A stretch of DNA of 64,000 nt from Candidatus Terrybacteria bacterium RIFCSPHIGHO2_01_FULL_48_17 (GCA_001822835.1 MHSS01000013.1:10321-74320); one strand, 5' to 3'. Shown: positions 14,634 to 64,000, counted from the stretch's first letter. The notes: generated by a model not told the origin, from the letters alone. Translations and numbers: made by a program.

Positions 14634-15479
14634 TTATAGTTCTGGTTCAACTTGTATTGTTGCATCAGCCCGGAGTTTTTCTTCCAATGCCTTGCGCACC
14701 GTTTGTACGATTGGGTATGCGTTTTCAATGGTCGTGTGGGCTTTTACCCGAATGTGAAGGTCAATAAAAGGATCTTCGGCGGTTCCGCGGCTTCGAATAT
14801 GGTGGCATTCGATTACTCCGGGAATTTTTTCGACAACCGTTCGGATTTCTTGCTCGTCAAATACTTTTGCATCAATGAGTATTTGAATATTCTCCCAAAT
14901 GAGCTCGCGGACGGCAATAAAGATGATAAGCCCGGCAATCGCAAGTGCGGCAAGTGGGTCCAGAACCGATACTCCTATTTTGAGTGCGCCGTAACCTACT
15001 AAGACGGCCCCTCCGGCAAAAAGGTCGCTTACTGTGTGCGTCGCATCTGCCTTAAGCAATCGTGATTGCCAACGTTTCCCAAGGAAACGCTCGATACTGG
15101 CAATGAGGGCATTTAAAACGAGCGTTCCTACAAGTAGCCAGAAGGCGATGGGAGAGAACACAACGGCGCTTCCCGATATAAGTTTTTCAATGCCTTGCTG
15201 TGCCACCACCACTCCACCAGCGAAAACCATAAGGCCGATGATCACTACGGCGAGTGGCTCAAAACGTTTATGTCCGTACGGATGTGCTTCGTGTGCGGGA
15301 CGAGCTGCGAGCCAAATACCGAAAATTGCGACGATATTCGCCCCACTATCAGAGAACGCATGAATCGCATCGGCCAGAATACTTGAACTTCCGGTAAGCA
15401 CATGAAGCACGATTCGCGTGATTGCAACACTAAGGTTTAAAGCAAGGATAATACCAAGCGCGGTAATCTGTCGCTTCAT
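14634..15479 (-). CDS. Cation diffusion facilitator family transporter
   Basis: Six TM segments, the HAFSD-x-GANIVAI signature in TM2, and a C-terminal cytoplasmic domain (...IHHIRSRGTAEDPFIDLHIRV). Confidence 0.85.
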   Translation of the reverse strand: MKRQITALGIILALNLSVAITRIVLHVLTGSSSILADAIHAFSDSGANIVAIFGIWLAARPAHEAHPYGHKRFEPLAVVIIGLMVFAGGVVVAQQGIEKLISGSAVVFSPIAFWLLVGTLVLNALIASIERFLGKRWQSRLLKADATHTVSDLFAGGAVLVGYGALKIGVSVLDPLAALAIAGLIIFIAVRELIWENIQILIDAKVFDEQEIRTVVEKIPGVIECHHIRSRGTAEDPFIDLHIRVKAHTTIENAYPIVQTVRKALEEKLRADATIQVEPEL

Positions 15480-15594
15480 TCGTTTTCACCTCGTAAGGTT
15501 CTGTGTATTCAATTATAACCTATTTAGCGTATTTTGGCAACAATTAAAAATTCCCGCCATCCGGGAAGCACGAAAGGGGAAGCCATGGGTTAAG

Positions 15595-16575
15595 TTAGAT
15601 AAGCCCCATTTTCTCTTTTACCTCGTGTAGCGTTTTTTGGGCAATGTTGCGTGCTGCATTGCGACCCGTTTCCAAAACAGCATCAATGTATTCCGGCGTG
15701 TTTTCTAGCCGCTTTCGTTTTTGTTGGAATAAGCTAAGCTCCCTGGCAACTACTTCTCCAAGCTCTTTTTTAAAAATATCATATCCTCGGCTCCTATATT
15801 CACGAACAAGCTCTTTGGCGTCTTTTCCGGAAAAGGCACTAAATATGGTAAGTAAATTCGAAAGCGCCGGTTTTCCGTTAGGATCGTACACAATTTCGGT
15901 TCCTGAATCTGTAACAGCCCGCTTGATTTTTTTGCGGATAAGATCGGGCACATCCGAAAGCGCGATATACGAATCCTCAACATGGGACTTCGACATTTTT
16001 TTTGTCGGTTCCTTCAATGACATAATGCGCGCGCCTTGCTGCGCAAGAATCGCTTTAGGTTCTGGGAATAGGTTTCCAAAACGGGAATTAAAGCGTTTTG
16101 CAATGGTGCGCGTAAGTTCAAGATGTTGAACTTGATCTTCACCAACCGGAACACCCTCGGTTTTGTAAAGTAGGATATCCGCAGCCATAAGCACGGGGTA
16201 TAAAAGCAGCCCCGCGTTAACGCCCTGTTTTGCAAATTGTTGCGCCTTATCTTTATATTGGGTCATGCGCTCAAGTTCGCCGATTTGGGCCACCGTGGTT
16301 AAAAGCCACATAAGTTCCGTATGTTCTGGTATGTGCGACTGCACAAAGAGCGTGCAGCGCTTAGGATCAAGCCCGAGCGCTAAATAATCAAGCGCAATGT
16401 TTTTGGTACGTTGCTGCATCTCTTTCGGTTCATAGGGCTCGGTAATGGCGTGCAAGTCAACGATTAAAAACAAGCACTCGTGCTCTTGTTGCAGTTCAAT
16501 CCATTGTTTAATCGCCCCCAAGTAGTTTCCAATATGGAGGGTACCGGATGGTTGAATGCCGGAGAGGATACGCAT
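15595..16575 (-). CDS. trpS: Tryptophan--tRNA ligase
   Basis: MRILSGIQPSGTLHIGNYLGAI (HIGH motif region) and KMSKS. Confidence 0.92.
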   Translation of the reverse strand: MRILSGIQPSGTLHIGNYLGAIKQWIELQQEHECLFLIVDLHAITEPYEPKEMQQRTKNIALDYLALGLDPKRCTLFVQSHIPEHTELMWLLTTVAQIGELERMTQYKDKAQQFAKQGVNAGLLLYPVLMAADILLYKTEGVPVGEDQVQHLELTRTIAKRFNSRFGNLFPEPKAILAQQGARIMSLKEPTKKMSKSHVEDSYIALSDVPDLIRKKIKRAVTDSGTEIVYDPNGKPALSNLLTIFSAFSGKDAKELVREYRSRGYDIFKKELGEVVARELSLFQQKRKRLENTPEYIDAVLETGRNAARNIAQKTLHEVKEKMGLI

Positions 16576-46892: not shown

Positions 46893-47051
46893 TATCGGGC
46901 ATCGAGCATATGAATACTCGATGCGTCCTTTTTATAGGGTACCGACCAATTCTTGGATTCGATCATTTTTTCAAACGGGTATCTCCGTAATCCTAAATCG
47001 AGCGCCAATACGATGAGCGCTCGATTTGGCTCGATACGGTACAATACTTCT

Positions 47052-47672
47052 ATGAGATATTTTCGATCCTCGACTCTGCTTGCGATCGTAGCGTTTATCG
47101 CGGCAAATGCCATGCCGTTTGTCTTTGGCGAAAACCTTAATCTTTTCTCGCTCCTCTTGTTCTACTGGCTTGAGACGGCAGTCATCGGCTGTTATAACAT
47201 CATGAAGCTTGCAATCATTAAGGAGTCCTATGCCGCTAAGGCGGTAAGGAATTTTGCGGCGTCGTGGATCATCGCACTAGGCCTTTATTTTATCTTCCTG
47301 ATGGTATTTACGCAGCTCATTCCTGGTCTTGAGCGCGAATTTCCCACATTGAAAGTAACACTATTGATATTTTTCTCGTATGCGGGGAGCCACGGCGTTT
47401 CGTTTTGGCAAAATTTCATAGGCAAACGCGAATATAAGTCCACAACGGCGAAGGAACAAATCAAGGCACCCGCCGGACGGCTCCTTGTGCTCCACTTTGC
47501 AATTGTCATTGGAGCGCTGGTCTTTGGCGGTCGTCTCTCCTCTACAATTGCCCTGCGACTATTCATCACCTTAAAAACACTTATTGACCTTGACGCGCAC
47601 TTTAAAGAACATGCCGTAGCGGCAAAACGATCACAACGCGATTTCAATGCGCCGCGAAGCGATAAGGGGTAG
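47052..47672 (+). CDS. Hypothetical polytopic membrane protein
   Basis: Five or six TM helices. Start set at the internal ATG 47052 (MRYFRSSTLLAIVAF). Confidence 0.45.
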   Translation: MRYFRSSTLLAIVAFIAANAMPFVFGENLNLFSLLLFYWLETAVIGCYNIMKLAIIKESYAAKAVRNFAASWIIALGLYFIFLMVFTQLIPGLEREFPTLKVTLLIFFSYAGSHGVSFWQNFIGKREYKSTTAKEQIKAPAGRLLVLHFAIVIGALVFGGRLSSTIALRLFITLKTLIDLDAHFKEHAVAAKRSQRDFNAPRSDKG

Positions 47673-47699: not shown

Positions 47700-48860
47700 A
47701 TGGGCGCAAACCGCGGCTTCACGCTCCTGGAGCTCATTATCGTTATCGCAATCCTTGCGATTTTGGCGGTGATTATTACATTAGCATTGAACCCCGCGGA
47801 ATTACTGGCTCGATCTAGAGATGCGCAGCGGCTTTCTGATTCGCGAACCCTCTCCACGGCGCTTCAGCTTTATACGGCAGAGGGCTCCAATCCCGATTTA
47901 GACGGCTCCATTTTAAACAATTGCGAGAACGGGGTAAGCCCTAACGCTTCTATTTTTATAAGTGGTGACGGACAAGCAGGGAATGATATTACAGACACCA
48001 CCTTTTCGGGGAGGGGCACTCCTGACGTCTTGGTGGCAAATCAGGATAATATGAGCATAAATGGATCGGGATGGATTCCAGTCGATTTCGCGACCGCACA
48101 TAGCGGTCTTGCTAATCTTCCTCTCGATCCTCGGTTTTCCGTGGCGAATCTAGCAGATGTAACCGAAGATGATTTTTTATATCTCTATGGTTGCGGGGAA
48201 AACCCTTTGGTATTTGAACTGAATACAAACATGGAATCCGATAAATTCTCCAATGGCGGCTCCGAAGATAAGGAATCCAAGGACGGCGGCAACACATCTA
48301 ATCTTTATGAAATAGGTACTGACTTATCTGTTATTGGGGGAGGCGGGGGCGCGGTGAGTTATAAAGTATTCATAACCTCCCAACAATATTATGGGAATGC
48401 TATGGGAGGGATAAGCGGGGCAGATTCTAAATGTCAAGCACGCGCCAACGCGGTAGGCCTTGGTGGAGTTACATGGAAAGCGTGGATTGTCGCAGATGGT
48501 TCGAGTCCGTCTAGTGCTTTTGTACACTTTGCCACGCCGATCTATCGGATCGATGGAGCACAAGTAGTAGATAACTGGGCAGATCTTATAGATGGAACAA
48601 TTGTTAACCCTATTAATGTTACGGAAAACGGGTCTTCGATCGGCAATGTGCAGGTTTGGACTGGTGATGACGGAAATACTATTGGGGAAGTTCCAGATAC
48701 AGTCAGGTCTTGTGCAACCAATTGGGATAATGCCACCGGCGCCTCAACGGGCTGGTACGGCCTTTCCGGATCTACCAATAGCCAATGGGTAGGAGGGAAT
48801 TTCGGAAATTGTAGTAGTTGGAATTTTCGGCTTTACTGTTTTTCGCAATCACCCTATTGA
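47700..48860 (+). CDS. Type IV pilin-like protein (prepilin-type N-terminal cleavage/methylation domain), 386 aa
   Basis: MGANRG|FTLLELIIVIAILAILA is the class III signal peptide with G-1, F+1, E+5. Large Gly/Ser/Asn-rich C-terminal domain. Confidence 0.75.
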   Translation: MGANRGFTLLELIIVIAILAILAVIITLALNPAELLARSRDAQRLSDSRTLSTALQLYTAEGSNPDLDGSILNNCENGVSPNASIFISGDGQAGNDITDTTFSGRGTPDVLVANQDNMSINGSGWIPVDFATAHSGLANLPLDPRFSVANLADVTEDDFLYLYGCGENPLVFELNTNMESDKFSNGGSEDKESKDGGNTSNLYEIGTDLSVIGGGGGAVSYKVFITSQQYYGNAMGGISGADSKCQARANAVGLGGVTWKAWIVADGSSPSSAFVHFATPIYRIDGAQVVDNWADLIDGTIVNPINVTENGSSIGNVQVWTGDDGNTIGEVPDTVRSCATNWDNATGASTGWYGLSGSTNSQWVGGNFGNCSSWNFRLYCFSQSPY

Positions 48861-56420: not shown

Positions 56421-56876
56421 ATGAAAAAACCATTCTCCTTTATTTTTCGAGCTCTTGATCGCTTAGCCCCGCCGCAGCGTGCCTATGCGCATTGCGATGT
56501 GCCCTGCGGCATTTATACGCCGGAGCCCGCACAAACCGCGGCCGATACCGTTGCCAAGATGGTTGAAAAGATACAGGCGCTTCCGAAAGAGAACCCGCCG
56601 ACAGAGGACACGCGAAATTCTTTCGTGCGCATGGTTGTGACAAAAGAAGAACATGCGGAAAAATGCAAGCGGGAATTGTTAATTCTGTGGACCGATTTTT
56701 TCAAACAGGAACATCTTGCCATGTTCCCCGATTTGCACCAAACGTTTTGGAAAGCAGCAAAGCTTTGCTCAAAAAACAAACAATCAGTAGATGCTGAGGC
56801 AGCAAAGCAATTGCAAGAAGCGGTTGCGCATATTGCCGAGATATTTGCAAAGGCGAAAGCAGCAGTAAGCAAATAA
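56421..56876 (+). CDS. sodN: Nickel superoxide dismutase precursor (NiSOD)
   Basis: Leader MKKPFSFIFRALDRLAPPQRAYA followed by HCDVPCGIYTPEPAQ (the His-Cys-x-x-Pro-Cys-Gly-x-Tyr Ni-hook) and ILWTDFFKQEHLAMFPDLHQ four-helix core. Confidence 0.85.
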   Translation: MKKPFSFIFRALDRLAPPQRAYAHCDVPCGIYTPEPAQTAADTVAKMVEKIQALPKENPPTEDTRNSFVRMVVTKEEHAEKCKRELLILWTDFFKQEHLAMFPDLHQTFWKAAKLCSKNKQSVDAEAAKQLQEAVAHIAEIFAKAKAAVSK

Positions 56877-56877
56877 C

Positions 56878-56990
56878 CAAGGAACAAGATACAAGATAAC
56901 AAACAAGATACAAATACCAAGACACAAACACCGCGCGAGTTTGGTTATTGATTATTGGAGCTTGTTTGGTTATTGTTTCTTGTATCTTAT
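56878..56990. repeat. Intergenic repeat family B, second copy (between sodN and sodX)
   Basis: aacaagatacaagataacaaacaagatacaaa...cacaaaca...tttggttattg...tttgtttggttattgtttcttgtatctt. Confidence 0.5.
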
Positions 56991-57270
56991 GAATATGTTT
57001 CGCCGTTTCATTATTGAAGGCATGAGCATGTTTCCGGCTTTTCGGCCTGGCGATCGAGTTGTAGCTTTGCGCAAGGCCGCATATCAGGCCGGGGACGCTG
57101 TGGTGGTTAAAGATCCCCGCGATGGGAGGATGTTGTTAAAACGCGTGCGCGCACACCGGGAAAATTCCTATTTTTTGGTGGGGGATAACCATGAGCAAAG
57201 CACTGATAGCCGTATGTTTGGCAGTGTTTCAAAAAACGCTATTTTAGGAAAGATTGTCGTAAGATATTAG
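56989..57270 (+). CDS. sodX: NiSOD maturation peptidase (signal peptidase I/S26-like)
   Basis: IIEGMSMFPAFRPGDRVV (catalytic Ser in a GxSMxP-type box), VVKDPRDG, LVGDNHEQSTDSRMFG (SPase box E-like). Start at ATG 56989 because upstream codons are repeat sequence. Confidence 0.7.
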   Translation: MNMFRRFIIEGMSMFPAFRPGDRVVALRKAAYQAGDAVVVKDPRDGRMLLKRVRAHRENSYFLVGDNHEQSTDSRMFGSVSKNAILGKIVVRY

Positions 57271-57411
57271 AGGTATTATTCGCAATGGTTTTGTAGCATA
57301 ATACCCGTAAAGCGTGTGGCTTGCGATAACGAGTGCCGTTCCTTTAGGGACGGAATTTTCTTTTAAGGCCATTCGTGTAAAGGTGAAAAAAATGGTACAA
57401 TAAAAGAAAGA

Positions 57412-59085
57412 ATGCCTGTTCCAATAGATCAGCTGAAAAAAGTATTGCAGTCAGGAAAATTCATTTCCGACGCTGATTTAACGCGGGCAGAAGGCCTTAC
57501 CAAGACCCGCAAAAAACCTTTTGAGCAGATCTTGGTTGAGGAAAATCTTATTGCCGATGAGCATCTTGGAAAGTTGGTTGCCGACATTCTTGGCGTCCCT
57601 TTTGTGAATTTAAGGGAAGTGGAAATTGATCCCGGAGTGCTGCGAATCGTTCCCGAAGTTGTTGCGCGTTCACAAAATGCTATTGCCTTTGAGCGTACTA
57701 AAGACGGCCTCAAAATCGCCATGGCCGATCCAAAACAGCTTGAATTTATCAGCAATCTTGAAAAGAAAGTCGGTGAGAACACAGGGGTGTATTATGCAAC
57801 ATTGCATGATATCCATGCGGCCTTTGGCCGCTATAAAAAAGAAGTAGGCGAGGCCTTTCAGGAAATTCTGGAACGCGAGCGGGCCAGTCGCACAAAAGCC
57901 ACAGAAGACAAAGAGGCGGTAGGAGTCAAAATTGTTGATTCACTCCTCGCTTATGGGTATGAAAATCGTGCCTCTGATATCCATCTTGAGCCGCAGGACG
58001 AGCGGGTGATAGTTCGATTTCGTATCGACGGAGTGTTACATGATGTTACGGAACTTCCCAAAGATTTACATGAACTTGTGGTCGCGCGCATTAAAGTGAT
58101 GAGTCGGCTACGTACGGATGAGCATCGTTTGCCGCAAGACGGAAAACTTTCCTTCAGTCAGGAAGGGGATCGTGTGGATGTGCGCGTGTCGATCGTGCCT
58201 ATTGTTGAGGGTGAAAAAGTAGTATTGCGCCTATTGGCTGAGGGGGCACGGCAATTTTCGCTTGAGAATCTTGGATTTTCTGAAAAAAATCTTGAGCTTG
58301 TGCGAGCGGCAGCCCAAAAGCCACACGGGATGATTTTAGTCACCGGCCCTACCGGTTCGGGCAAAACGACAACGCTGTACGCGGTGCTTAAAATGTTGAA
58401 CCGTCGGGAAGTAAATATCGCAACCATCGAAGATCCCGTTGAATATGATATTGAGGGTGTTAATCAGATACAGGCCAATCCCGCAATCGGTATTACCTTC
58501 GCAAACGGTTTGCGCTCAATTGTTCGGCAGGACCCCGATATCATTATGGTGGGAGAGATTCGGGATCAAGAAACGGCAGACATTGCAATAAACGCTGCGT
58601 TGACGGGCCACTTGGTACTTTCGACCTTTCATACTAATGACGCAGCCACTGCCTTACCGCGTCTTTTGGAAATGGAAATTGAGCCATATCTTGTTGCCTC
58701 TACCGTTATTGTGGTCGTTGCGCAACGATTGATACGAAGGATTTGTAACCGTTGCGTGGAGAGCCATATGATATCTCCCGAAGAGCTTGAGAAGATAGTG
58801 CCGCAAGAAGCCCGTTCTGTTTCGTTACAACAACCTCTCCGTTTTTTTAGCGGTAAGGGGTGTAATGCGTGCGGGGGGACTGGTTTTATTGGTCGAGTTG
58901 GGATTTTTGAGGTTTTGACGATGACCGATGCAATTCGAGATTTGGTATTGAGGCGAGCACCGAGCGGCGAAATTGAGCAAGAAGCCAAGAAAGAGGGAAT
59001 GATAACCATGTTCGAAGATGGATTTGCAAAAGCACAGGCGGGCATCACCACGATAGACGAAATCCTTCGTGTGACCCGTGCCTAA
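57412..59085 (+). CDS. pilB: Type IV pilus assembly ATPase PilB (GspE family)
   Basis: N-terminal GSPII domain. Walker A LVTGPTGSGKTTTLYA. Asp/His boxes. Tetracysteine CNRC...CNACGGTGF. Confidence 0.9.
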   Translation: MPVPIDQLKKVLQSGKFISDADLTRAEGLTKTRKKPFEQILVEENLIADEHLGKLVADILGVPFVNLREVEIDPGVLRIVPEVVARSQNAIAFERTKDGLKIAMADPKQLEFISNLEKKVGENTGVYYATLHDIHAAFGRYKKEVGEAFQEILERERASRTKATEDKEAVGVKIVDSLLAYGYENRASDIHLEPQDERVIVRFRIDGVLHDVTELPKDLHELVVARIKVMSRLRTDEHRLPQDGKLSFSQEGDRVDVRVSIVPIVEGEKVVLRLLAEGARQFSLENLGFSEKNLELVRAAAQKPHGMILVTGPTGSGKTTTLYAVLKMLNRREVNIATIEDPVEYDIEGVNQIQANPAIGITFANGLRSIVRQDPDIIMVGEIRDQETADIAINAALTGHLVLSTFHTNDAATALPRLLEMEIEPYLVASTVIVVVAQRLIRRICNRCVESHMISPEELEKIVPQEARSVSLQQPLRFFSGKGCNACGGTGFIGRVGIFEVLTMTDAIRDLVLRRAPSGEIEQEAKKEGMITMFEDGFAKAQAGITTIDEILRVTRA

Positions 59086-60157
59086 TTTACACACTATGCG
59101 TATCCTTATTCCATTTACGGGGGTCTCCCACACGGAGCTTTTGCTTTCCACAAAGCATCTTGCCATGATGCTTAAAGCTGGCGTTCCTTTATTTGAAGCG
59201 CTGGAGGCGTTGGCTGAGGCATCGCGCGGAAAACTTGCAAAAGTATTTGCAGCGGTTCAAAAAAAGGTGGAACAAGGCGAGCAGCTATCGCGCGCGTTGG
59301 CTGTGTACCCGGATATTTTCCCTTCGTTTTACGTGAAGCTGGTGGCTATTGGAGAGTCGTCCGGGACGCTTTCCCAGAACCTTCAAGAAATTGTGACCTA
59401 CTTGGCACGCGAGCAAGAGCTTCGGTCACGTATACGGGGGGCCATGATGTATCCTGTTTTGGTATTGGTTGTGTTTGTTTTGGTTTTTATGGCGGTTGCG
59501 ATGTTTGTTTTGCCGAATTTGACACGGGTTTTTCGTGTGTTGCATGGCGACATCCCATTTATGACCCAAGTCGTTATTGCGATTGCGGATTTTTTCAAGG
59601 CATATGGGAGCATTGCGGTTCCAGCGTTTGGTTTTGCGATGTTGGCATTCTGGGTGTTGTTAATGCAGCCCTTTATCCATCCCGTAACACATCGGATGTT
59701 CCTTTCTATTCCGCTTATTGGCAATATTGCGCGCCAAGTAAGCATTGCTCGCTTTTCCCGGAATCTTTCGTTGTTGTTATCAGCGGGCATTTCTTTACAC
59801 GAAGCTCTTACTATCGCATCCAATGCTGCGACAAACGTGGTGTATCAAAACGCCATAAAAAAAGTTGCTGTTCCTGTAATGCAGGGAGAAGGATTGGCTG
59901 CAGGTCTTCTGGCACACCCCTCGCTCTTTCCCGGATTTTTCGTGCGCATTGTTTCGGTTGGGGAGCGTTCGGGCAAATTGGACGAGGCCTTAGCGTTTAT
60001 TGCGTCGTTTTACGACCAAGAAGTAGAAGCAACTACCCAAAACTTAACTACGTTGCTTGAGCCGCTTTTATTGGTGGTGGTCGCAATTTTTGTTGGGGGA
60101 TTTGCTCTTGCAGTTATTACTCCCATTTATGAAATCACCGGTCAGCTTCGGCGCTAA
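59078..60157 (+). CDS. pilC: Type IV pilus inner-membrane platform protein PilC (GspF family)
   Basis: Two GspF repeats. About 360 aa. Overlaps the pilB stop. Confidence 0.88.
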   Translation: MPNLHTMRILIPFTGVSHTELLLSTKHLAMMLKAGVPLFEALEALAEASRGKLAKVFAAVQKKVEQGEQLSRALAVYPDIFPSFYVKLVAIGESSGTLSQNLQEIVTYLAREQELRSRIRGAMMYPVLVLVVFVLVFMAVAMFVLPNLTRVFRVLHGDIPFMTQVVIAIADFFKAYGSIAVPAFGFAMLAFWVLLMQPFIHPVTHRMFLSIPLIGNIARQVSIARFSRNLSLLLSAGISLHEALTIASNAATNVVYQNAIKKVAVPVMQGEGLAAGLLAHPSLFPGFFVRIVSVGERSGKLDEALAFIASFYDQEVEATTQNLTTLLEPLLLVVVAIFVGGFALAVITPIYEITGQLRR

Positions 60158-60593
60158 GCAGGGCTTTACGTTCATTGAAGTCCTTCTCGTAAGTTTTATT
60201 CTGGTTATGCTGGTAGGGGTTGCTGCTCCCTTCTTCCGGGATTTTCTTGTAGGCAATGATCTTGAAACAGCAAGCATTGAGATGCTTGCCATGGTGCGGC
60301 GGGCGCGAACGCTTGCCGAAGCCGGAAGGCATAATCAACCTTTTGGCATAGCGGTTAATGCCGGAGGGCGGAGCGTAACGCTTTTTGCGGGATCAAGTTT
60401 CGCCAGCCGCGACCCCCAATTTGATGAGGCGATGACTTTTCCGGGAACCCTTACTGTTTCGGGTCTTTCCGAATTCACTTTTCTTTATCAAAGCGGCTTA
60501 CCCACACAAACGGGAATTATTACCTTTACTGCGCCGGCGCTTGGCGAGAGCCGCGCTATTTTTGTTAATGCACAAGGACTCTCTTCGTTTTAA
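60129..60593 (+). CDS. Prepilin-type pseudopilin (minor pilin)
   Basis: MKSPVSFGAKQG|FTFIEVLLVSFILVML is the class III leader with G-1/F+1/E+5. Start overlaps the pilC 3' end. Confidence 0.7.
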   Translation: MKSPVSFGAKQGFTFIEVLLVSFILVMLVGVAAPFFRDFLVGNDLETASIEMLAMVRRARTLAEAGRHNQPFGIAVNAGGRSVTLFAGSSFASRDPQFDEAMTFPGTLTVSGLSEFTFLYQSGLPTQTGIITFTAPALGESRAIFVNAQGLSSF

Positions 60594-62028
60594 AAAGAAT
60601 GGGCAGTCGGTCGTTGAGATTATTCTTGCGGTTGCGGTATTTTCAATTATCGCCAGCGGCGTTGTCGTGCTTGGGGTCGGAACCTTGCAGGGATATTTGC
60701 GCACTCAAGACGAATCCCGCGCGATTGAAATAGTGCAGGAGGGAATGGATGCTGTTCGATCAATCCGTGACCGTAATTGGAGTTCGTTATCCGTGGGTTC
60801 CCACGGATTATCCGATACGGGGGGGCTGTGGGTTTTTTCCGGTGTTTCAGAAATTGTCGGCAAATACACAAGAACCGTCACCGTAAATTCTGTATCGCGC
60901 AATACCCTGTGCGGCGATCCGGGCAGCGGCACCACTCAAGATCCCGACTCTCGGGGCATAGATGTTTCTGTGATATGGCAGGGACTCGACGGTAATCAGC
61001 GGACCATTTCGACAAACGGCGAACTTACAAGATGGCCAAGCCCAAAGTTTGCAACGTGCGGAGGCCGCGGCTGGAGAAATCCTTTTCAAGAAGTAAGTAT
61101 TGATATTTCAGGAACTCAAGACGGTCGAGCCATCCGGATCCAGGGCGACTATGCCTATATGGTACTTAGTGGAGGAGCACCCAATTTTTTTGTTATAGAT
61201 ACCGCAAACACACAAAACCCTTCTATCGTCGGCTCGTTAAACCTTTCTGGAAATCCCAGGAGTATTTGGGTGTCGGGGGATTATGCATACGTTGCCTCAT
61301 CTCATAACAACCAGGAGCTGCAGATTGTGGATATTACTGTTCCTTCTTCGCCAACACAGGTCGGAAGTTTTGATGCCACGGGTGCCACGGATGCCCTCGG
61401 TGTTTTTTCTGTCGGGACTAGTGCATATTTGGTGCGAGCTTCCAGCAATCAAAACGAATTTTTCGTTATTAATGTAAGTATCCCTTCAGCTCCTTCGTTA
61501 GTGGGTTCGCTTGATTTAGGCGCAAACGCGAATGATGTTACGGTTGTTGGCACCTATGCATTTATTGCCTCATCTCATAACAGCCAAGAATTGCAGGTAG
61601 TGAGTATAAGCGCGCCAACAACGCCCACGCTCGCCGGCTCCTTGAATCTTGCAGGGAATGCAGACGGATTAGCAATTGCATATTTTAGTAATAAGATTGT
61701 CTTAGGGCGAGCTTCCGGCGGTGGCCTTGTGGCGATTGATGTTACATTCCCCACAAGCCCCGGCCTTTTGGGATTGTTGGCAAATACCGCAAATATTGAT
61801 GGCGTATCCTTAGACGCGGCCAATAGCTTAGCGTTTTTGGCGACAGACGCAGGTACTAGCGAATTTCAAGTTATTGATATTTCAAACCCCGCAAGTCCTC
61901 AATTATTCGGGTCGCTTGACGCAAACGCCCGTTTATTTGGAGTGGCGTATCACTCAGGAAAAGATAGGGCATTTGCCGCGGGCATCTCCGATACCGAAGA
62001 GTTTATTGTTGCAGCACCCGAGCCATGA
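60568..62028 (+). CDS. Prepilin-type pilin with LVIVD-repeat beta-propeller domain (putative pilus-tip adhesin)
   Basis: Leader ...RFKKNG|QSVVEIILAVAVF (E+5). At least six repeats of the form GDYAYVASSHNNQELQIVDITVPSSPTQVGS (the LVIVD motif). Confidence 0.7.
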   Translation: MHKDSLRFKKNGQSVVEIILAVAVFSIIASGVVVLGVGTLQGYLRTQDESRAIEIVQEGMDAVRSIRDRNWSSLSVGSHGLSDTGGLWVFSGVSEIVGKYTRTVTVNSVSRNTLCGDPGSGTTQDPDSRGIDVSVIWQGLDGNQRTISTNGELTRWPSPKFATCGGRGWRNPFQEVSIDISGTQDGRAIRIQGDYAYMVLSGGAPNFFVIDTANTQNPSIVGSLNLSGNPRSIWVSGDYAYVASSHNNQELQIVDITVPSSPTQVGSFDATGATDALGVFSVGTSAYLVRASSNQNEFFVINVSIPSAPSLVGSLDLGANANDVTVVGTYAFIASSHNSQELQVVSISAPTTPTLAGSLNLAGNADGLAIAYFSNKIVLGRASGGGLVAIDVTFPTSPGLLGLLANTANIDGVSLDAANSLAFLATDAGTSEFQVIDISNPASPQLFGSLDANARLFGVAYHSGKDRAFAAGISDTEEFIVAAPEP

Positions 62029-62603
62029 CAACGAAGAAGTTTCTTCCAAACGGCTCCTTGGAGTCAAAGGGCGGCTTCACACTGATTGAGGCATTATTGT
62101 ATATCGCCTTGCTTGCTATGGTAATTACATCCGCCGTGGGGGTCACTTTTATGGTATTGGGGAATAGGGAAAAGGGTATTAGTGTGGCAGAAGCGCAAGA
62201 AAATGCCTCACTAGTGTATGCAAGAATTTCCCAAAACGTGCGAGCATCAGATTTCGTTGTGCGAAGCGGCGGAACTAGAACCTTATTTGATATCAATCCA
62301 GGAAGATTATCGCTTCAAATGCCAAGCGGACAAGTTACCATCGATACATATACAAAGGAAGTTCTGTTGGGAAACCGTACCTTTACCATTCGAAAATTGC
62401 GTTTTGACGACGGCTCCCAAGTTGTTGACCTTACTTCGGATTTGGTTGACGTGACACAGTTTGTTATCCGCGACCGCAGACAAGGTACGGAGCCCGATAC
62501 CATAAAAGTGGAATTTACGGTTCAGTATTTTAATCCCGACCAAATATCGCTTTATGATGCCCAGGTCCTAAGAATCTTTACCGTAAACAGAAGAAAGAAT
62601 TAA
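62025..62603 (+). CDS. Prepilin-type pseudopilin
   Basis: ...SKGG|FTLIEALLYIALLAMVI leader motif. 192 aa. Confidence 0.7.
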   Translation: MTTKKFLPNGSLESKGGFTLIEALLYIALLAMVITSAVGVTFMVLGNREKGISVAEAQENASLVYARISQNVRASDFVVRSGGTRTLFDINPGRLSLQMPSGQVTIDTYTKEVLLGNRTFTIRKLRFDDGSQVVDLTSDLVDVTQFVIRDRRQGTEPDTIKVEFTVQYFNPDQISLYDAQVLRIFTVNRRKN

Positions 62604-62604
62604 T

Positions 62605-62985
62605 ATGCAAAAGCAATTACGCGATTCTCACCAAGGAGCTGCGGCCTTAATAAGCGTTTTTATTATGGGCGCGGTGCTGATTTTAGTCGCGGTAACATTA
62701 TCTTTGGTTTCTGTAAGCGCCTTGGATACGACCACAGGATCGCGTGATGGCGCGCGTGCATTTGCTGCTGCAGAGGCCTGTTTGGACGAAGCATTGTTGC
62801 GTTTGATACGCGATGCCACGTTTCCCGGCGTTTCGCTTTCCGGCTGCAGCGTAACGGTTTCTGGAGCGGGGAATACCCGTACCCTTCGTGCAAGTGCTAA
62901 TGTTGCGCAATCGACAAGAACCATTGAGGCGGATTTTGATATCGGTATTCGAAGAATTACCCGATGGATTGAACCGACACTATGA
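62605..62985 (+). CDS. PilX-like pilus assembly/pseudopilin protein
   Basis: HQGAAALISVFIMGAVLILV hydrophobic N-terminus typical of the PilX N-domain. No G-F-xxx-E cleavage site. Confidence 0.45.
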   Translation: MQKQLRDSHQGAAALISVFIMGAVLILVAVTLSLVSVSALDTTTGSRDGARAFAAAEACLDEALLRLIRDATFPGVSLSGCSVTVSGAGNTRTLRASANVAQSTRTIEADFDIGIRRITRWIEPTL

Positions 62986-63986
62986 AACATATTGCCATTG
63001 GTATAGACATTAACGATTCCGCGCTTAACGTGGTTGTTTTGGCTGAAACACCAGAACAGCCGCTCATACAACTTAAGCGCCATATTGCATTACAAGAAGG
63101 TTTGGTTAAAAACGGGGCGGTGGTAAAAGAACAGGACCTTGCTGCGATCATCAGTAGGGAATTGGAGGCACTTTCCGATGCCAAGCAGGGAACTTCGTAT
63201 ACGATAGTGGGGGTTGCTGATAATGAAGTTTTTCCACATCTGGTGGATGTTCCCGCGCAAGGCAACGTGGTAAAATGGAAACAGGAAGCTTTTCGTAGGG
63301 CATTTTCTGCAGTTCCATTTGGCCCACAGGAGCTTACTGCAGATCTTGAAGATTTAGGTATCGAGAAAAAAGGGAAGCGCGCGTTATTATTTGTGGCAGC
63401 GCGAAAGCAAGTAATTGACGGACTTGACCGAGCGATACGCCATGCCGGGCTTGAGCCGCAGGTGTTTGAAATGGCTTCTGTTGCCCTTGCGCGGGCACTG
63501 GTTCCCGAAGCATTTCAAGATAAGAAAAATACCGTGTTGTTGAATATCGGGTTAGCATTTGCAAATATTGCGCTTTTTTGGGAAGGAAGTTTGCGTTTTG
63601 CCGAAAGCTTGCCTTTGCCAAAAAACGGCGAATTGAGCCAATCAACTCTTGCGATGCTTGCCGAGCATATTGAGCGCGCGATGCAGTTTTCTGGTGTACC
63701 GTTTGCGCAATTGGTTTTTACGGGCGATCTTGCTTTTGAGCCAGCGCTTCGTACGAGCTTGCAGAATAATTTTCCGAGAATTCCCCTTAGGGTGGGAGCT
63801 GATAACAAAGAAGACATGGCTATTGCAACTGCGAGGGGCCTTGCAATGCGTGGGCTTGAGGTCGACCCCACGAAGCGAGGCATGAATTTATTACCCACAA
63901 AACAAGAAGCGTCACCCCCGAGGGTATTGGCACCGATCGTATTTATATACCGCCGCGTGCTTGATATTCTCGGGAAAAACAAGTAA
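62982..63986 (+). CDS. pilM: Type IV pilus assembly protein PilM (actin-like ATPase fold)
   Basis: IAIGIDINDSALNVVVL N-terminus (actin-fold phosphate-1 region). About 330 aa. Position right after the pilin genes. Confidence 0.65.
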   Translation: MKHIAIGIDINDSALNVVVLAETPEQPLIQLKRHIALQEGLVKNGAVVKEQDLAAIISRELEALSDAKQGTSYTIVGVADNEVFPHLVDVPAQGNVVKWKQEAFRRAFSAVPFGPQELTADLEDLGIEKKGKRALLFVAARKQVIDGLDRAIRHAGLEPQVFEMASVALARALVPEAFQDKKNTVLLNIGLAFANIALFWEGSLRFAESLPLPKNGELSQSTLAMLAEHIERAMQFSGVPFAQLVFTGDLAFEPALRTSLQNNFPRIPLRVGADNKEDMAIATARGLAMRGLEVDPTKRGMNLLPTKQEASPPRVLAPIVFIYRRVLDILGKNK

Positions 63987-64000
63987 CATATTTTTTATGC

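Follow-up and report, generated by a model that had tools for sequence, protein, structure and literature searches.

We analysed a 64,000-nucleotide stretch of DNA from Candidatus Terrybacteria bacterium RIFCSPHIGHO2_01_FULL_48_17 (GCA_001822835.1 MHSS01000013.1:10321-74320; hereafter the window), and found in its type IV pilus operon a gene for a pilin that carries a beta-propeller. The gene (60568..62028, plus strand) encodes 486 residues and a stop codon (487 residues according to an earlier note on this DNA), and in our structural model a GspI/PilV-type pilin module is followed by a short linker and a closed seven-bladed propeller of LVIVD repeats. This protein, the LVIVD pilin, is probably a modular minor type IV pilin, with the propeller serving as the tip-displayed binding module of the priming complex. 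The combination of propeller and pilin is real and occurs widely in this group of bacteria, with more than 300 full-length homologues, and modular pilins have already been described. How uncultivated Patescibacteria find and hold their partners is largely unknown, genetics being limited to a few Saccharibacteria.

The propeller and the pilin module

The Pfam profile LVIVD (PF08309) gave the protein 111.7 bits (E=9.9e-33), well above its threshold of 20.2 and far from a chance match, and reported four stretches. Aligned in register, the C-terminal part consists of seven repeats of 42-47 residues each, of the type ...GxYAYVAS..NxELQVVDIS.PxxPxxxGS; the LVIVD signature recognised in the earlier note was borne out, and its count of six or more repeats of about 40 residues becomes exactly seven. 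AlphaFold2, run on the homologue alignment, gave a model of the whole protein with a predicted local distance difference test (pLDDT) score of 89.3, comprising a 55-residue helix (residues 15-69), a sheet (77-154), a low-confidence linker and 28 strands that form seven four-stranded blades (173-483) closed into a propeller. The propeller as we delimit it spans residues 173-486 (61084..62025, plus strand), with blades starting at 173, 219, 263, 310, 354, 399 and 445. The structure prediction for which the earlier note had called thus returned a pilin helix, a sheet and a complete propeller.

We asked what such a propeller may do. The top Foldseek match was a propeller phosphotriesterase (5hrm, E=1.2e-12), and peptidase modules on pilins have been catalogued (PMC8179133), as would be expected if the pilus delivered a catalytic propeller, a hydrolase or lyase, to the envelope of a partner. 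However, the Foldseek matches were generic seven-bladed folds with identities of 8-15%, the invariant residues (the Glu of the repeat motif, Pro, Gly and Trp) are structural, and no metal-binding or catalytic constellation was identified. We therefore regard an enzymatic role as extremely improbable. The Pfam scan gave no RCC1 repeat match on the LVIVD pilin, and choice-of-anchor B (TIGR04312) reached 48.6 bits against a cut-off of 100, over residues 195-314 only.

The N-terminus reads MHKDSLRFKKNG/QSVVE, where the slash marks the predicted cleavage after Gly12, and the class III (prepilin) leader peptide, MHKDSLRFKKNG, is encoded at 60568..60603 (plus strand). In an alignment with 43 full-length homologues (38-46% identity) at least 90% keep Gly12 (-1) and all have Glu17 (+5); in a set of 23 homologues both positions are invariant. 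The homologue consensus at the cleavage site is G-F-S-L-V-E. Four homologues pass the Pfam N_methyl (PF07963) threshold of 21.2 bits (28.0, 22.9, 22.0 and 21.9 bits at L018, L060, L079 and L073, respectively), and PF07963 is a precomputed assignment for several homologues. It is family conservation, rather than the Pfam score, that supports a genuine prepilin leader in the LVIVD pilin.

The pilin module (residues 13-155; 60604..61032, plus strand) consists in the model of the alpha-1 helix, running to residue 69, packed on the C-terminal antiparallel sheet, which is the pilin fold. Modelled alone (pLDDT 85.2), it found its best structural matches among minor pseudopilins of the type II secretion system (T2SS), followed by major pilins and Streptococcus sanguinis PilA, and it resembles subunits of the GspI/PilV type. 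No NCBIfam GspI/PilV profile matched the LVIVD pilin at E<=1, and its own profile gave weak matches to Protein Data Bank (PDB) sequences, confined to the N-terminal helix.

A conserved cassette with interchangeable modules

The LVIVD pilin gene occupies the second place in an H-I-J-K-like cassette of four genes. The cassette is flanked upstream by pilB-pilC and downstream by (pilM)-pilA, and the operon that they form is conserved across Patescibacteria. The first gene (60129..60593, plus strand; 154 residues; H position) has the leader MKSPVSFGAKQG/FTFIE (KQG/FTFIE) and matches TIGR02532 with 18.3 bits (cut-off 16.3) and, weakly, GspH (E=7.9e-4); its family consensus is RGFTLIE, and the family profile finds solved pilins with E=6.7e-9. 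The LVIVD pilin takes the I position. The third gene (62025..62603, plus strand; 192 residues; J position), with the leader ...SKGG/FTLIE, just passes N_methyl (21.5 bits); its family has the same consensus, RGFTLIE, in which G, T, L and E never vary, and its profile finds pilins with E=1.3e-4. The fourth (62605..62985, plus strand; 126 residues; K position) is a PilX/GspK-like pilin gene with sub-threshold matches to PilX_N (E=0.008) and GspK (NF037980, E=0.039), and its product begins HQG/AAALIS, a hydrophobic N-terminus after a Gly in which +5 is not Glu.

At the family level genes 1, 2 and 3 keep G-F-T/S-L-I/V-E, whereas the consensus of gene 4 keeps the Gly, replaces Glu5 by a hydrophobic residue or Ser and has two conserved Cys. 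The earlier note had described pilB, pilC, four prepilin-leader genes and pilM as contiguous; the gene order stands, but only three of the leaders have Gly(-1)/Glu(+5), the fourth reading G/AAALIS. In the H-I-J-K core minor-pilin complex the cap is the K subunit, which has no Glu5 (PMC9934059), and the gene order and Glu5 pattern seen here mirror that set. The I assignment of the LVIVD pilin is the only one in the cassette with structural support, which comes from the model. Identification of the H, J and K genes by profiles against PDB sequences was dropped, as it yielded no assignment for these three neighbours: two of the profiles matched pilins through the N-terminal helix only, and that of the fourth gene had no match.

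We examined synteny in 79 species-representative genome loci, a sample retrieved with a 15-sequence subgroup alignment and biased towards the two peptide patterns employed. Upstream of the LVIVD-type pilin gene, in the 64 loci with enough DNA on that side, lay pilB (62), pilC (63) and pilin 1 (58); downstream, in 73 such loci, lay pilin 3 (68), the PilX-like gene (67), pilA (59) and pilM (9). The same arrangement was seen on three further homologue-bearing contigs. The records are titled Uhrbacteria, Staskawiczbacteria, Paceibacterota, Jacksonbacteria, Dojkabacteria, Woykebacteria, Berkelbacteria, Falkowbacteria, Moraniibacteriota, Curtissbacteria, Daviesbacteria, Doudnabacteria, Magasanikiibacteriota and Gracilibacteria. 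Some bins titled 'uncultured Gammaproteobacteria', 'Pseudomonadales' or 'Bdellovibrionales' (L007, L015, L020, L024, L025, L029, L069 and others) also carry the Patescibacteria-type operon, at 41-52% identity. These titles look unreliable and were taken to be doubtful labels given to co-assembled bins, since both the operon and the sequence identities match those of Patescibacteria loci.

A profile of the pilin module retrieved 992 representatives of 50%-identity clusters at E<=1e-30, a number that rises to 5,714 at the looser limit of E<=1e-10. The proteins are 135-1,300 residues long, and the module was always N-terminal. Among the best 150 matches, 67, mostly proteins of 453-512 residues, have an LVIVD-type propeller and 83 do not. 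The latter include 63 proteins longer than 230 residues, in which Pfam recognises fn3 (10), DUF2341 (2), Kelch (1), a ConA-like lectin (1) and BclA_C/TNF-like (1), and no known domain in most. The genome loci also hold bare pilins of 156-290 residues, fn3-fn3-propeller proteins of 838 and 1,082 residues and, at a Ca. Falkowbacteria locus, a double-propeller protein of 973 residues. Thus Parcubacteria-type lineages carry a widespread and well-conserved propeller head on a core minor pilin, whose scaffold swaps modules between lineages.

Two side observations concern the same scaffold. At four loci (L063:6004-7260, L064:5941-7719, L073:5974-7659 and L081:5486-7219) the I-type scaffold, in the same operon position, bears C-terminal regions of 260-440 residues that have no Pfam match and are uncharacterised alternative tip modules. 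In the window itself, at a distance from the pilus operon, a second long prepilin of 386 residues (47700-48860, plus strand; MGANRG/FTLLELIIVIAIL) scores above the N_methyl threshold (30.4 bits), and its Cys/Gly-rich C-terminal half has no Pfam match; it may be another modular pilin. It is preceded by a gene for a DUF6498 membrane protein (46953-47672).

The arrangement suggests how the LVIVD pilin would work. A prepilin peptidase encoded elsewhere in the genome would remove the 12-residue leader, and the four minor pilins would then form a priming complex in the membrane on the PilC platform, with the Glu5-less subunit on top. Polymerisation of the major pilin, driven by PilB, would push this complex outward, so that the bulky propeller could sit only at the pilus tip. 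There it would serve as the head that binds a ligand, which is probably a conserved polymer on the surface of a partner cell or a substrate. The pilus-presented adhesin of the earlier note accordingly survives as a binding module, which is the best reading of the protein; the attachment of an episymbiont to its host cell, which the note had also put forward, is a possible role with a precedent in PilX2, described below.

It is also conceivable that the propeller has no specific external ligand and instead lends stability to the minor-pilin initiation complex, or controls extension and retraction as a stop or plug, as proposed for PilY1. The propeller is highly conserved and has a fixed place in a priming cassette, and PilY1 together with minor pilins primes assembly in Myxococcus, according to work cited in PMC11623550 and PMC9934059. 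However, in many lineages the same scaffold, in the same operon, is bare or bears an fn3, Kelch or lectin-like module instead, which indicates that the propeller is dispensable for assembly as such, and module swapping is typical of effector modules. A purely structural role is therefore unlikely in our view.

Several observations count against a tip-displayed binding module. Membership of the LVIVD pilin in the pilus is predicted from sequence and model. The prepilin leader, which the earlier note had singled out as a point to check, is backed by conservation of Gly(-1) and Glu(+5), but the protein scores only 15.2 bits with N_methyl, under the threshold, and its +1 residue is Gln where the family consensus is Phe (Gln is likewise found in 6 of the 22 homologues displayed). 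In the window, no prepilin peptidase was found among ten membrane-protein ORFs scanned, nor was PilT present, and the H, J and K labels rest on gene order, Glu5 status and sub-threshold matches. No ligand-binding motif was identified in the LVIVD pilin. Finally, the propeller is as conserved as the pilin part: mean pairwise identity is 46.5% in the propeller, 43.9% in the pilin sheet and 48% in alpha-1 over its C-terminal half. The propeller is thus not hypervariable, which argues against a rapidly evolving binder of host-specific receptors, since a determinant of host range would be expected to vary more.

Two other explanations draw on these observations. The class III signal might merely anchor or export a surface protein that is not part of any pilus, as in archaeal bindosome proteins, which would fit the N_methyl score and the sub-threshold match to choice-of-anchor B. 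Members of the choice-of-anchor B family occur with various anchoring signals. Yet the gene is strictly conserved within the pilB-pilC-minor pilin-pilA operon, the Glu5 needed for filament packing is invariant, and the protein has a complete GspI-like globular domain, more than an anchor helix, all of which makes a non-pilus protein very unlikely. Alternatively, the propeller could be the DNA receptor of a competence pilus, capturing the extracellular DNA that auxotrophic ultrasmall bacteria need for nucleotides. Good conservation is what a generic ligand such as DNA would predict, and DNA-binding modular minor pilins exist, for example ComZ (cited in PMC8179133). However, mutants of the TM7x T4P-2 pilus (treated below), including the propeller pilin mutant, have no competence defect (PMC12206443), and we found no comEC or comEA beside the operon within the 6-10 kb examined on four contigs. 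We consider a DNA receptor quite unlikely, and a binding module for a partner or substrate remains the reading that we hold probable.

A broader proposal, which we advance tentatively and regard as rather doubtful, is that the I-type minor pilin is a universal plug-in carrier of interchangeable tip modules across Patescibacteria. Most often the module would be an LVIVD propeller; double propellers, fn3 plus propeller, Kelch, lectin-like and unknown folds, or no module at all, would be the other states. The module carried would set what the ultrasmall cell latches onto, and that of the LVIVD type would be specific for a conserved polymer of the envelope. If this were true, a tip module read from a metagenome could predict the partner or substrate specificity of uncultivated lineages. 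The pilin-module profile provides a sequence marker for metagenome surveys of tip modules, and residues 173-486 of the LVIVD pilin are a concrete recombinant target for ligand screening.

The rest of the operon and its surroundings

Listing of open reading frames (ORFs) together with Pfam and NCBIfam scans showed that 57412-63986 is a compact plus-strand type IV pilus operon, in which adjacent genes either share 4-29 nt or leave no more than 10 nt between them. The first gene, pilB (57412..59085, plus strand), encodes a 557-residue assembly ATPase of the PilB/GspE type found in type IV pili and T2SS (T2SSE, E=4.9e-129), with an MshEN N-domain (E=6e-13); against TIGR02538 it reaches 549.7 bits, under the equivalog cut-off of 675.65. 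The platform protein gene pilC (59096..60157, plus strand) encodes 353 residues from the GenBank start and matches T2SSF in two stretches (E=1.6e-58); an alternative GTG start at 59078 is likewise open. After the cassette comes pilM (62982..63986, plus strand; 334 residues; PilM_2, E=6.9e-11; TIGR01175, E=2e-19).

The major pilin gene, pilA, begins 10 nt past pilM, which brings the pilin genes of the operon to five, not four. It is cut by the end of the window (63997..64000, plus strand, continuing at L001:13430-13933) and encodes a 167-residue protein, MQTKKG/FTLIELLLVV, recognised by Pfam N_methyl. Beyond the window end, pilA is followed by genes for a Kelch-repeat protein (L001:14115-15026), whose ORF must be extended to an upstream ATG for an N-terminal transmembrane segment to appear, and for a MoxR-type AAA ATPase (15104-16087).

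The earlier note had listed pilN/O/P/Q and pilT as missing from the window, and our scans agree. No PilB paralogue was present within the 64 kb, and so there is no pilT in the window; separate pilN, pilO, pilP or pilQ genes were not seen there either. A secretin is not expected in the absence of an outer membrane. Peptidase_A24 was found by the Pfam scan in none of ten membrane-protein ORFs of the window, in which other families were matched and which include all seven ORFs with at least three predicted transmembrane segments outside the pilus operon. A search of the window for prepilin peptidase motifs gave one irrelevant match only.

The C-terminus of PilM (63880-63986) ends ...GMNLLPTKQEASPPRVLAPIVFIYRRVLDILGKNK and contains an NLLP motif. 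This motif resembles the PilM-binding N-terminal peptide of PilN. At some related loci the PilM-matching ORFs are 510-708 residues long and are possibly PilM-PilN(-PilO) fusions.

Directly upstream of pilB (56421-57270, plus strand) lie two genes, one for a nickel superoxide dismutase (Sod_Ni among the precomputed assignments of the contig, with the motif HCDVPCGIY) and the other for the protease that matures it (TIGR02754, E=5.4e-17). A promoter and terminator scan of 56800-64000 yielded counts at chance level, and the sole suggestive operon boundary is a terminator-like hairpin (57336-57353) that separates the protease gene from pilB.

We compared the window with GenBank MHSY01000006.1 (GCA_001822935.1, Terrybacteria RIFCSPLOWO2_01_FULL_4x), a 77,912-bp contig in which it occupies positions 10,553-74,552, and found 1 difference in the 13,433 bases compared. 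It falls within the LVIVD pilin gene, at position 60981, where G for T results in Q138 in place of H138. Apart from residue 138, the LVIVD pilin is the GenBank 'hypothetical protein A3A30_00400' of that record.

Comparison with known systems

The earlier note had held that LVIVD propellers are not normally found in pilins. This proved incorrect, given the homologues and pilin-module representatives counted above and the published catalogue of Raynaud et al. 2021 (PMC8179133), who defined modular pilins. Dataset S1 of that paper lists, in seven lines, 30 InterPro proteins in which IPR012902 (N_methyl) is followed by one to thirteen IPR013211 entries, and a database check identified IPR013211 as the LVIVD repeat. 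The same paper calls it a 'motif of unknown function' and mentions an 860-residue protein from Ca. Falkowbacteria that has it. Like the modular pilins of that study, the LVIVD pilin has an N-terminal pilin module, a short linker and a bulky C-terminal module, with a predicted location at the pilus tip and a monoderm-type envelope; the LVIVD module, however, is only catalogued there and no member was studied. Literature searches combining LVIVD with pilin, and Parcubacteria with pilin and propeller, returned no study of the LVIVD pilin family beyond this catalogue entry.

In S. sanguinis two modular pilins, PilB (with a vWA module) and PilC (whose module is a lectin), act as tip adhesins (PMC8179133, PMC9934059). 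They belong to a three-pilin PilABC set in which the I-like PilA is non-modular, whereas here the modular pilin is itself of the I type and is encoded in a four-gene cassette.

In TM7x (Nanosynbacter lyticus, Saccharibacteria), the T4P-2 minor pilin PilX2 bears a seven-bladed propeller of the RCC1 type (PMC12206443). Its deletion roughly halves host binding (PMC12206443, Grossman et al., ISME J 2025), and competitive fitness also depends on it, whereas assembly of the filament and competence do not (PMC12206443). Both proteins are minor pilins of Patescibacteria with a C-terminal seven-bladed propeller, each is the largest pilin of its locus, and each is a proposed tip adhesin. By its published description PilX2 lacks a predicted PilD signal peptide and its repeats are of the RCC1 type, which sets it apart from the LVIVD pilin, with its LVIVD repeats, conserved Gly(-1)/Glu(+5) leader and GspI-like module.

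The PilY1/PilC tip adhesin system with FimU-PilV-PilW-PilX (or GspH-I-J-K), known from diderm T4aP and T2SS, also has a four-gene cassette in the same order, with a last member lacking Glu5, and a seven-bladed propeller tied to the tip complex; a role in both priming and effector presentation is likely in either case. PilY1 is, however, a separate, non-pilin protein whose IPR008707-type propeller docks on the minor pilins; the LVIVD pilin is not of this kind, as a propeller of another family, LVIVD, is covalently fused to an I-type pilin.

The archaeal and bacterial surface propellers of the LVIVD/choice-of-anchor B type (PF08309; TIGR04312) have the repeat family in common with the LVIVD pilin, and an extracellular location is expected for both. 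Those surface proteins use Sec signal peptides together with C-terminal sorting signals or S-layer contexts, whereas the LVIVD pilin would be anchored by its N-terminal pilin module.

On the most economical reading, a tip-displayed binding module in the priming complex, the LVIVD pilin would be the functional counterpart of PilY1 on PilVWX and of PilB and PilC in S. sanguinis, in parallel to TM7x PilX2. The general picture of type IV pili is unchanged by it; the 'modular pilin' idea and the precedent of PilX2 are extended to a large and unstudied family.

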